In this document: positions 43,578 to 46,500 of the stretch, piece after piece | Numbering within the stretch: the stretch's first letter is position 1 | Layout: every line of letters starts with the position of its first letter | Assembly (NCBI GenBank): GCA_964016885.1 | Contig: OZ024742.1 | Coordinates: forward strand, 126,542,001 to 126,606,000 | DNA from: Eledone cirrhosa | Lineage: Eukaryota | DNA length: 64,000 bases | Reading direction: 5' to 3' | The notes under the pieces: model-generated | Told to the model about the DNA's origin: nothing | Databases searched by the model: none | The model's input: only the letters and a program-made list of their open reading frames with translations | Translations under genes and position numbers: made by a program

Positions 43578-46500
43578 ATGTATATATATATATATATATA
43601 TATATATATATATATATATATATATATATATATATATATATATATATATATGTATATATATATATATATATGTATATATATATAAATATGTGTGTATATA
43701 TATATATATATGTGTGTGTGTATATAAATATGTGTGTGTGTATATATATATATGTGTGTGTATATATATATATATATATATATATATATGTATGTATATA
43801 TATATATATATATATATATATGTATATATATATATATATATATATATATATATATATATGTATATATATATATGTATATATATATATGTATATATATATA
43901 TGTATATATATATATATATATATGTATGCCTGTATATATATATATATATATATATATATATATATATACATATATATATATACATGCATACATATATATA
44001 TATATACATATATATATATACATATATATACATGCATATATATATACATATATATATATATACATATATATACATGCATACATATATACATATATATATA
44101 CATATATATATATATATACATGCATACATATATATACATATATATATATACACATGCATACATATATATATATATATACACATGCATACACATATATATA
44201 TATATATACACATGCATACATATATATATATATATATATATATATACATATATATATATATATATATACATGCATACATATATATATATATATATATATA
44301 TATATATATATATATACATGCATACATATATATATATATGCATACATATATATATACATACATATATATATATATATATATATATATATATAATCAACAA
44401 CAAAGAACGCATATAGCATATGTATATCTTTACTTGCTAACATTGTTTCATCCGCACTATAAGTGGGACTCATCAGAGCATAAAGGTTGATTACATATTA
44501 CACAAGCAATAACAGATCCAATATATACTATATATATATATATGTATATATATATGTATGCATGTATATATATATATATATATATATGTATGCATATATA
44601 TATGTATGCATATATATATATGTATATATATATGTATGCATATATATATGTATGCATATATATATATATATGTATATATATATATATGCATATATATATA
44701 TATATGTATATATATATATATATATATATATATGTATGCATATATATATATATATGTATATATATATATGTATATATATATATGTATATATATATATATA
44801 TATATATATGTATGCATATATATATATATGTATATATATATATGTATATATATGTATGCATATATATATATATGTATATATATATATGTATATATATGTA
44901 TGCATATATATATATATGTATATATATATATACATATATATATATATATGCATACATATATATATACATTATATATATATATATATATATATATATATAT
45001 ATATATGCATACATATATATATACATATATATATATATATATATATATACATATATATATATATATATGCATACATATATATATGCATACATATATATAT
45101 ACATATATATATATATATATATATATACATGCATACATATATATATACATATATATATATATATACATATATATATATACATGCATACATATATATATAC
45201 ATATATATATATATACATGCATACATATATATATACATATATATATATATATATATATATATACACACATATATATATATATATACACACACACATATAT
45301 ATATGCATGTATATATATATATATATATATATGTGTATATATATATGTATGTATATATATATGCATGTATATTTATATATATATATATGTGTATATATAT
45401 ATGTATGTATATATATACATATATATATATACATACATATATATATACGTATATATATATATATATATATATACATATATATATATATATACATACATAT
45501 ATACGTATACATATATATATATATATACATATATATATATATATATATATATGTATATATATATATGTATATATATATGTATATATATATATGTATATAT
45601 ATATATACATATATATATACATATATATATATATACATATATATATACATATATATATATACATATATATATATACATATATATATACATATATATATAT
45701 ACATATATATATACATATATATATATATATGTATATATATATATATGTATACGTATATATGTATGTATATATATATATATGTATATATATATATATATAT
45801 ATATATATATGTATGTATATATATATATGTATATATATATATATATATATATATACGTATATATATATGTATGTATATATATATGTATATATATATATAT
45901 ATACATATATATATATATATATATATATAGTATATATATACGTATATATATATGTATGTATATATATATATGTATATATATATATATATACACATATATA
46001 TATATATATACATATATATACATATATACATATATATATACATATATATATATATATATATACATATATATATATATATATATAGTATATATATACGTAT
46101 ATATATATATATATACGTATATATATATGTATGTATATATATATGTATATATATATATATACATACATATTTATATATATATATATACATATATATATAC
46201 ATACATATTTATATATATATATATACATATAGTATATATATATATATATATATATATATGTATATATATATATATACATACATATTTATATATTTATATA
46301 TATATATATACATACATATTTATATATATATATATACATATAGTATATATATATATATATATATATATATATGTATATATATATATATACATACATATTT
46401 ATATATTTATATATATATATATATACATATAGTATATATATATATATATACATATATATATACATATAGTATATATATATATATATATACATATATATAT

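Follow-up and report, generated by a model that had tools for sequence, protein, structure and literature searches.

Background

The systems closest to the locus described here are the Penelope-like elements (PLEs) of the Hydra clade (Craig et al. 2021, PMC8557442). In the account of the clade given there, these elements are recognized by RWK, DKT and CxCX5C motifs, by CxxC and CxH standing around a conserved E and N, by the lack of CCHH and by canonical hammerheads; almost all families insert into (TA)n, and the elements are generally <3 kb long. RT and endonuclease (EN) are encoded in a single ORF. Stem III of the hammerheads is a palindrome of 3-4 bp with a 1-nt loop, and cleavage often follows U or A. 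A tail at one end has already been described for PLEs (PMC8557442, Fig. 2 legend, where it measures 30-40 bp; PMC3846280). The same account treats as open how the tandem or inverted structures and the tail are formed, and what directs insertion into microsatellites.

According to the part of the survey of metazoan PLEs that concerns us (Cervera and de la Pena 2014, PMC4209133), their pLTRs carry minimal type I hammerheads with a stem II of 7-8 bp, a short proximal stem I and a palindromic stem III. The motifs are found mostly singly in truncated PLEs or as nearby pairs on opposite strands, and a single motif did not cleave in vitro. For PAc, a Poseidon element of Anolis belonging to another clade, the relevant sections of Frangieh et al. 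(2024, PMC11167929) describe a tail defined by two internal RT start points, an AT-rich target, cutting and extension of both DNA strands, uncleaved RNA as template and a protein-assisted hammerhead; hammerhead mutants of PAc inserted normally. Finally, non-LTR retrozymes (Li, Clavereau and Pollet 2026, 10.64898/2026.07.22.740005) are presented in that report as protein-less, type I hammerhead-bearing relatives of PLE pLTRs, organized in tandem units with their own boundaries.

Both hammerheads in Penelope-like pLTRs and the targeting of (TA)n by Hydra-clade elements are therefore already published, and in this respect we consider the present finding ordinary.

Results

The window (the whole stretch of DNA analysed, 64 kb) is repeat-rich DNA of animal type with many TA arrays. 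One of these, 43577-46967 (3.4 kb), contains a single complex stretch of more than 20 nt, the island at about 44390-44521, so that a preliminary description of the island as the sole complex sequence of the array was borne out. That description gave its span as 44392-44528 (137 bp). The 130 bp at 44392-44521 are indeed homologous to other copies; the last seven positions, 44522-44528, have no same-orientation alignment to them. We are confident that the island corresponds to the final 130 bases of a Penelope-like retrotransposon that is multi-copy and encodes a protein with Hydra-clade motifs. The copy likely entered a TA array already present at the site and was cut short while being reverse-transcribed. 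The features are as follows.

43577..44391, strand not applicable: TA array on the 3' side of the element (putative target), with C-polarity interruptions in 43967-44359
44392..44521, minus strand: 5'-truncated 3' end of a Penelope-like retroelement, Hydra-clade by its motifs; a pLTR fragment of the short, tail-less end class (129/130 identical to the copies L002 and L004)
44428..44485, minus strand: predicted type I hammerhead; stem III is palindromic and vestigial, and stem I continues beyond an internal bulge (from layout and covariation)
44438..44439, minus strand: predicted cleavage site after GUU, between 44439 (N17) and 44438 (from the hammerhead consensus)
44440..44449, minus strand: GAA (44449-44447) and stem III ACA-A-UGU (44446-44440), a near-palindrome predicted to pair between two copies
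44450..44469, minus strand: stem II, 8 bp with one bulged C, a 3-nt loop UAU and G-U as first pair
44470..44476, minus strand: core CUGAUGA (C3-A9), invariant save N7 in 11/11 aligned rows
44522..44528, plus strand: 7 nt at the 5' junction, outside the element as read in this orientation; perhaps left over from an inverted long-end partner
44529..44922, strand not applicable: G-polarity block of the array (from shared inverted 40-mers)
44923..46967: remaining TA array; GCATAC resumes at 44950-45219, and 14 more polarity switches follow beyond the one near 44925

The polarity of the interruption motif flips across the island: CATGCATAC occurs eight times in 43983-44317, and GTATGC nine times in 44556-44898. 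The switch reported earlier is real; it is one of 17 in the array 43577-46967, and GCATAC is back at 44950-45219, where there is no island. The G block at 44529-44922 has 48 inverted 40-mers in common with the block to its right vs 8 with the block left of the island, which places the mirror centre at about 44925, 400 bp from the island. In all arrays of the window taken together, 25 of the 239 adjacent interruptions switch polarity, and four other TA arrays (270-1290 bp) have no island.

Two observations on repeats can be added. The distal part of the array (45411-46967) is rich in long self-inverted words; its 127 shared inverted 40-mers point to repeated fold-back copying inside the array. 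Elsewhere in the window there are complex tandem arrays at 8520-10963, 15039-15537 and 17341-22376, with units of 45 bp (54 copies), 71 bp (7 copies) and 46 bp (109 copies), respectively.

The hammerhead

All parts of the consensus (CUGANGA, GAA and UH with stems I-III) are present on the minus strand of the island. The proximal part of stem I is formed by UGCU (44480-44477) and AGCA (44438-44435), and the distal part by CUUUA (44485-44481) and UAAAG (44432-44428). The predicted cut lies 47 nt from the 3' end of the island and 82 nt from the 5' junction. Pair probabilities computed for the 58-nt fragment are 0.81-1.0 in stem II, 0.83-0.91 in distal stem I and 0.28-0.48 in proximal stem I. Closure of stem III within one copy costs +3.7 kcal/mol (around 1 nt it cannot close, and as 2 bp it is unfavourable), vs -5.4 kcal/mol for the duplex of two copies.

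A loose core pattern gives one match vs 0.11 expected, and it was found in 10 of 100 shuffles. The 137-mer folds no more stably than its shuffles (z -0.96), its MFE structure is without stem I, and the hammerhead is not the MFE. Rfam compared with the window gave no match at the gathering score, and at E<=10 no hammerhead, just TA-driven miRNA noise. Since the chance pattern, folding and Rfam are each modest or null, the case for the hammerhead rests on copy number and covariation.

As for copy number, the genome search with the island gave 41 matches at 95-100% identity from 1077 candidates, with 40 scored. The 42-nt ribozyme core has 696 exact copies genome-wide and 937 if stem II is left free; reversed controls gave 0 and 1, respectively.

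As for covariation, the same genome has three sister families of Hydra type (L111-L128) with 50-58% protein identity, which bear hammerheads and have open ORFs, the longest of 963 aa; two of them have pLTR hammerheads of their own and ends abutting TA, and in families B and C the hammerhead occupies the same place in the pLTR. The alignment consists of 11 rows from families A, B and C (55-57% protein identity); a fourth sister family, L116, has a shorter stem III and for that reason was not aligned. Save for N7, the core is invariant across the three families. The first pair of stem I changes from U-A to C-G between families, and an inner pair of stem II from C-G to U-A, with the bulge staying in place, so that family C has the same bulged geometry with changed pairs. 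A third double change (U-A to G-C), seen by eye, was excluded from the count because of gap placement. In the 11 rows 92.5% of the cells pair, vs 28-37% in slid controls. Shuffles equalled the alignment in 4 of 500 cases by covariation score and in 9 of 500 by double-change cells, and in 471 of 500 by double-change pairs. These values point to structural constraint on the hammerhead; as they come from three independent lineages, with two double-change pairs, the support is genuine but of modest depth.

The minus-strand hammerhead with an extendable stem I, as proposed in the preliminary description, is thus supported: the search of the genome with tabulation of the flanks found the island to be multi-copy, its fold covaries across families, and its homologues are TA-flanked. 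We consider the hammerhead of the island real as a predicted fold.

The parent element

The island (44392..44521, minus strand) maps to both pLTRs of two full elements, at loci L034 (96.9% identity) and L129 (92.3%). Their layout is a pLTR with hammerhead, one ORF of ~830 aa, a 3' UTR of ~2.2 kb, a second pLTR with hammerhead, and TA. The two pLTR hammerheads are 4711 and 4953 bp apart, respectively, which makes an element of 4.7-5.0 kb; at L034 an inverted truncated copy stands on the 5' side. Hammerhead-bearing pLTRs in direct and inverted arrangement, with the tail on one end, are found in the family (L034, L129 and 15 of the 16 inverted pairs described below).

The product of the ORF consists, in this order, of RT, a CxCX5C linker and a GIY-YIG-type endonuclease. 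Its motifs are RVRWR, PSDKT, YRDD, CNCRRASGC, VY..YIGST, CNLC..E and CPH. RVRWR is a conservative K to R variant of RWK; PSDKT has DKT instead of DKG; CNCRRASGC is the linker, which reads CNCRVSANC, CNCRRSSNC and CNCRRKDKC in the sister families. The endonuclease is without CCHH and has a GIY-YIG core with one Cys, followed by CNLCLAE ... LNRK ... CPH. At least 25 of the 150 scored matches (identity >=92%) are stop-free over >=818 aa, and an 844-aa open frame with YRDD and then VY..YIGST is present in L129 and L130.

A protein search scored 7989 sequences, 244 of which were relatives at E<=1e-10; identity along the full length reached 41%, and nearly all of them are unnamed. One is from Argonauta, and the host may be a cephalopod. 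In Pfam no RT family was found in the element ORF, and GIY-YIG was sub-threshold (E 0.0086) in one endonuclease frame; a PDB profile search of the element protein found nothing. With no name from Pfam or PDB, the identity of the RT rests on its motifs (YRDD) and on a by-eye likeness to published Hydra ORFs. The assignment to the Hydra clade is likewise made by protein motifs and by-eye comparison with published ORF excerpts. The literature searched contains no account of this particular family; Repbase and Dfam, which lay outside the search, may catalogue it.

Compared with the Hydra clade as described in PMC8557442, including Hydra-1_Obim, the element shares the single RT-EN ORF, RW[K/R], DKT, CxCX5C, CxxC..E and CxH, the absence of CCHH, the build of the hammerhead and the insertion into (TA)n. 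It differs from the same description in its length (4.7-5.0 kb with the long 3' UTR, vs generally <3 kb, which is a tendency and no diagnostic), in its tail of ~95 nt vs 30-40 bp, in an Asn/Gly-rich insert between RT and EN, and in RWR in place of RWK. The supplement of that paper gives Hydra hammerheads of the same build; that of Hydra-1_Obim, an octopus member, has another sequence, so that the element here is another family. Relative to the hammerheads described in PMC4209133, the present one has the same stem II length, short proximal stem I and palindromic stem III, and the same occurrence in truncated copies or opposite-strand pairs; it has G10.1-U11.1, not G-C, and no clear extra base after A9, and distal stem I is kept in families A and B.

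Truncation of the copies

We sampled 60 loci, namely the 30 best matches (window included) and the first 30 by position, with one copy in both sets. Truncation points at the 5' side are scattered across the family. The window copy is the most truncated one, with 45 nt upstream of the core vs 63 to >1500 nt in the other 59. By an automatic and rough classification, the 5' junctions of the 60 lead to an inverted partner (29), off the locus edge (12), to TA (10, window included) or to other DNA (9). The 5' junction of the window was found once, as itself, in 3.0 Gb, and 249 copies keep the uninterrupted upstream letters; such uniqueness indicates a one-off random truncation. Contigs of two public runs have loose ends at 44521 and continue in the letters of the element. 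At the junction the element reads ...CAATGTC|TTGG, with no TA run.

The earlier view of the island as a hammerhead-plus-tail unit does not hold, since it is the most truncated of 60 copies of a coding element of ~5 kb, its junction was found once, and its end is of the tail-less class. An apparent further 5 nt of match between the window and L129 proved fortuitous. At L098 (2150-2540) a short-end copy is cut ~7 nt upstream of the window junction; it adjoins, through a short word common to both, an inverted partner extending into the ORF.

TA flanks

Copies of the element end at two fixed points ~95 nt apart, both of TATA-like letters and both abutting genomic TA; the window uses the nearer point. 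Among the 30 best matches all 27 terminal copies (window included) have a TA run of >=8 nt at the 3' end, compared with 9-10% in the background. In the positional set the same holds for 26 of 29 (28 of 29 if the run may lie within 20 nt), so that the two samples together give 53 of 56 terminal ends at TA. All four copies that read through into the ORF are without TA at the end points, which implies that TA is host sequence outside the element and that the array was likely targeted, not seeded. On the 5' side TA was found in 9 of the 18 other resolved non-inverted copies. GCATAC flanks the island on either side without a change of polarity, and the TA on both sides of copies fits the splitting of a pre-existing run.

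A polarity switch was considered as a family signature and rejected. Of 35 complete insertions, eight (the window and seven others) are TA-flanked with >=2 interruptions per side; polarity is kept in five of the seven, and the other two are mixed, with no block switch.

Two further observations concern the flanks. At L034 (2100-2440 and 8380-8620; G000:C1:123,559,500+) an interrupted TA array of ~300 bp is directly repeated on both sides of a full insertion, resembling a very long target duplication; as a rule this was rejected, being found in 1 of 10 pairs. In the 3' flanks of the unrelated insertions L010, L011, L013 and L113 the same foreign repeat begins right behind the TA run, suggesting that TA runs are landing sites common to several elements.

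Discussion

The mechanism that we presume for the island follows from the anatomy of the copies and from PAc. The endonuclease of the element would nick (TA)n, and the freed 3' end would pair with TATA letters in the RNA and prime reverse transcription from inside the transcript. At the island, synthesis would have stopped after 130 nt, and the product would have been rejoined to the array. Since the predicted cut site lies inside the copy, the template would have been uncleaved RNA, or RNA re-joined at that position, and not the cleaved product. The hammerhead would then travel as part of the pLTR, and its role in the source element would be the processing of multi-unit transcripts. For this it would probably act as a dimer or be assisted by a protein, because stem III barely closes within one copy; the dimer matches the calculated stem III energies and the absence of monomer cleavage in the assays described in PMC4209133. 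The stub itself has no ORF and is probably inert.

PAc, as described in PMC11167929, resembles this scheme in its two internal start points and AT-rich target, in the cutting and extension of both strands, and in the uncleaved template and protein-assisted hammerhead. Its start points lie inside the ORF, whereas here both are upstream of the first Met.

The order of events could be the reverse, the insertion having seeded or greatly expanded the array, either through (TA)n added by a telomerase-related RT or through a nick that set off fold-back copying and so made the inverted G block. That nearly all terminal copies end in TA, that polarity flips exactly across the island, and that at L034 (1 of 10 pairs) the array is repeated directly on both sides all speak for it. 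We nevertheless regard it as quite improbable, and the earlier suggestion of seeding is not upheld, whereas the companion suggestion of targeting agrees with the 53 of 56 ends at TA and with the TA-less read-through copies. The same-polarity GCATAC on both sides, a mirror centre 400 bp off the island, the general frequency of switches (17 in this array, 25 of 239 in the window), the five insertions that keep polarity and two that are mixed, the TA that is found on the 5' side as well in 9 of 18 other resolved non-inverted copies, four long arrays with no island, and the 99% identity of the island copy to its nearest relatives are all hard to reconcile with seeding. Targeting of an existing array is likely and is favoured over seeding, with some expansion after insertion possible.

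A longer insertion that later lost its body by deletion between TA runs is unlikely as well. Short TA runs do occur within the 3' UTR of the element, and the array itself is unstable; however, a TA run is missing from the element at the junction, scattered 5' truncation is the rule in the family, and the seven nucleotides at the junction match an inverted long end (see below), although a deletion could yield the same match. There is least to be said for a discrete non-autonomous mini-element (SINE-like or a retrozyme monomer), in which the hammerhead and a short tail are mobilised as a unit. It is true that the island holds the whole hammerhead with short flanks and nothing more, but the idea is largely refuted by a 5' junction confined to the window in 3.0 Gb against 249 copies continuing upstream, and by the longer upstream reach of the other 59 sampled copies. 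Neither end of the island coincides with the cut site, tandem units are absent, and the island has no fixed boundaries of its own, in which it differs from the retrozymes as reported in 10.64898/2026.07.22.740005: the type I hammerhead, the lack of a protein and the kinship to PLE pLTRs are common to both, and the island arose once, by truncation of a coding element. We believe it very improbable. Truncation during reverse transcription into an existing array is the reading that we retain.

The value of the family lies in the material: it is young and abundant, with dozens of open ORFs, two sharp RT start points that lie outside the ORF at a distance of ~95 nt, and inverted pairs that follow a strong short-plus-long rule. 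We consider it a good system for the questions left open in the cited account of PMC8557442, on tandem and inverted structures, the tail and microsatellite insertion.

Inverted pairs of copies

In inverted pairs one outer end is short and the other long; this holds for 9 of 10 pairs taken from the match list and for all 6 taken by position, in total 15 of 16 (binomial p 0.0003). On the opposite strand, the long ends of the window's subfamily read TATATATA-GTATATA-AGGG (9 copies), and the 5' junction of the window reads TATATATA-GTATATA-TTGG, so that 7 nt match the start of an inverted long end. In the whole array the phase-shifting base is found a single time in this orientation; its frequency is ~0.04% per base in other arrays and ~0.3% per base and strand here, and the chance of the match is roughly 0.3-2% over seven possible offsets. 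As a vestige of an inverted partner the match is suggestive only, since it hinges on one informative base noticed post hoc and no vestige was found at the nine other TA-joined 5' junctions of single copies.

The short-plus-long rule and the 7-nt match both fit priming of reverse transcription by the two cut DNA strands. It is tempting to propose, quite tentatively and with more doubt than confidence, that the island is an almost minimal product of such two-strand priming, with 130 nt from the near start point and ~7 nt (44522-44528) from the far one, the cDNAs being joined head to head. If this were true, every insertion of the family would be a pair of a short and a long end made by a dimeric RT-endonuclease, and the PLE tail and the inverted pLTR would come under one rule.

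A second, unrelated hammerhead island lies between TA runs in the window at 32644-33032. It is an inverted pair with arms ~95% identical and cores at 32829 (minus strand) and 32940 (plus strand); one end is short and the other ~85 nt longer, a layout also seen in L012, L041 and L053. At least eight other hammerhead-like families were met by chance in the flanks of L031-L080 and L111-L130, several of them as inverted pairs in TA, and the genome is dense in them.
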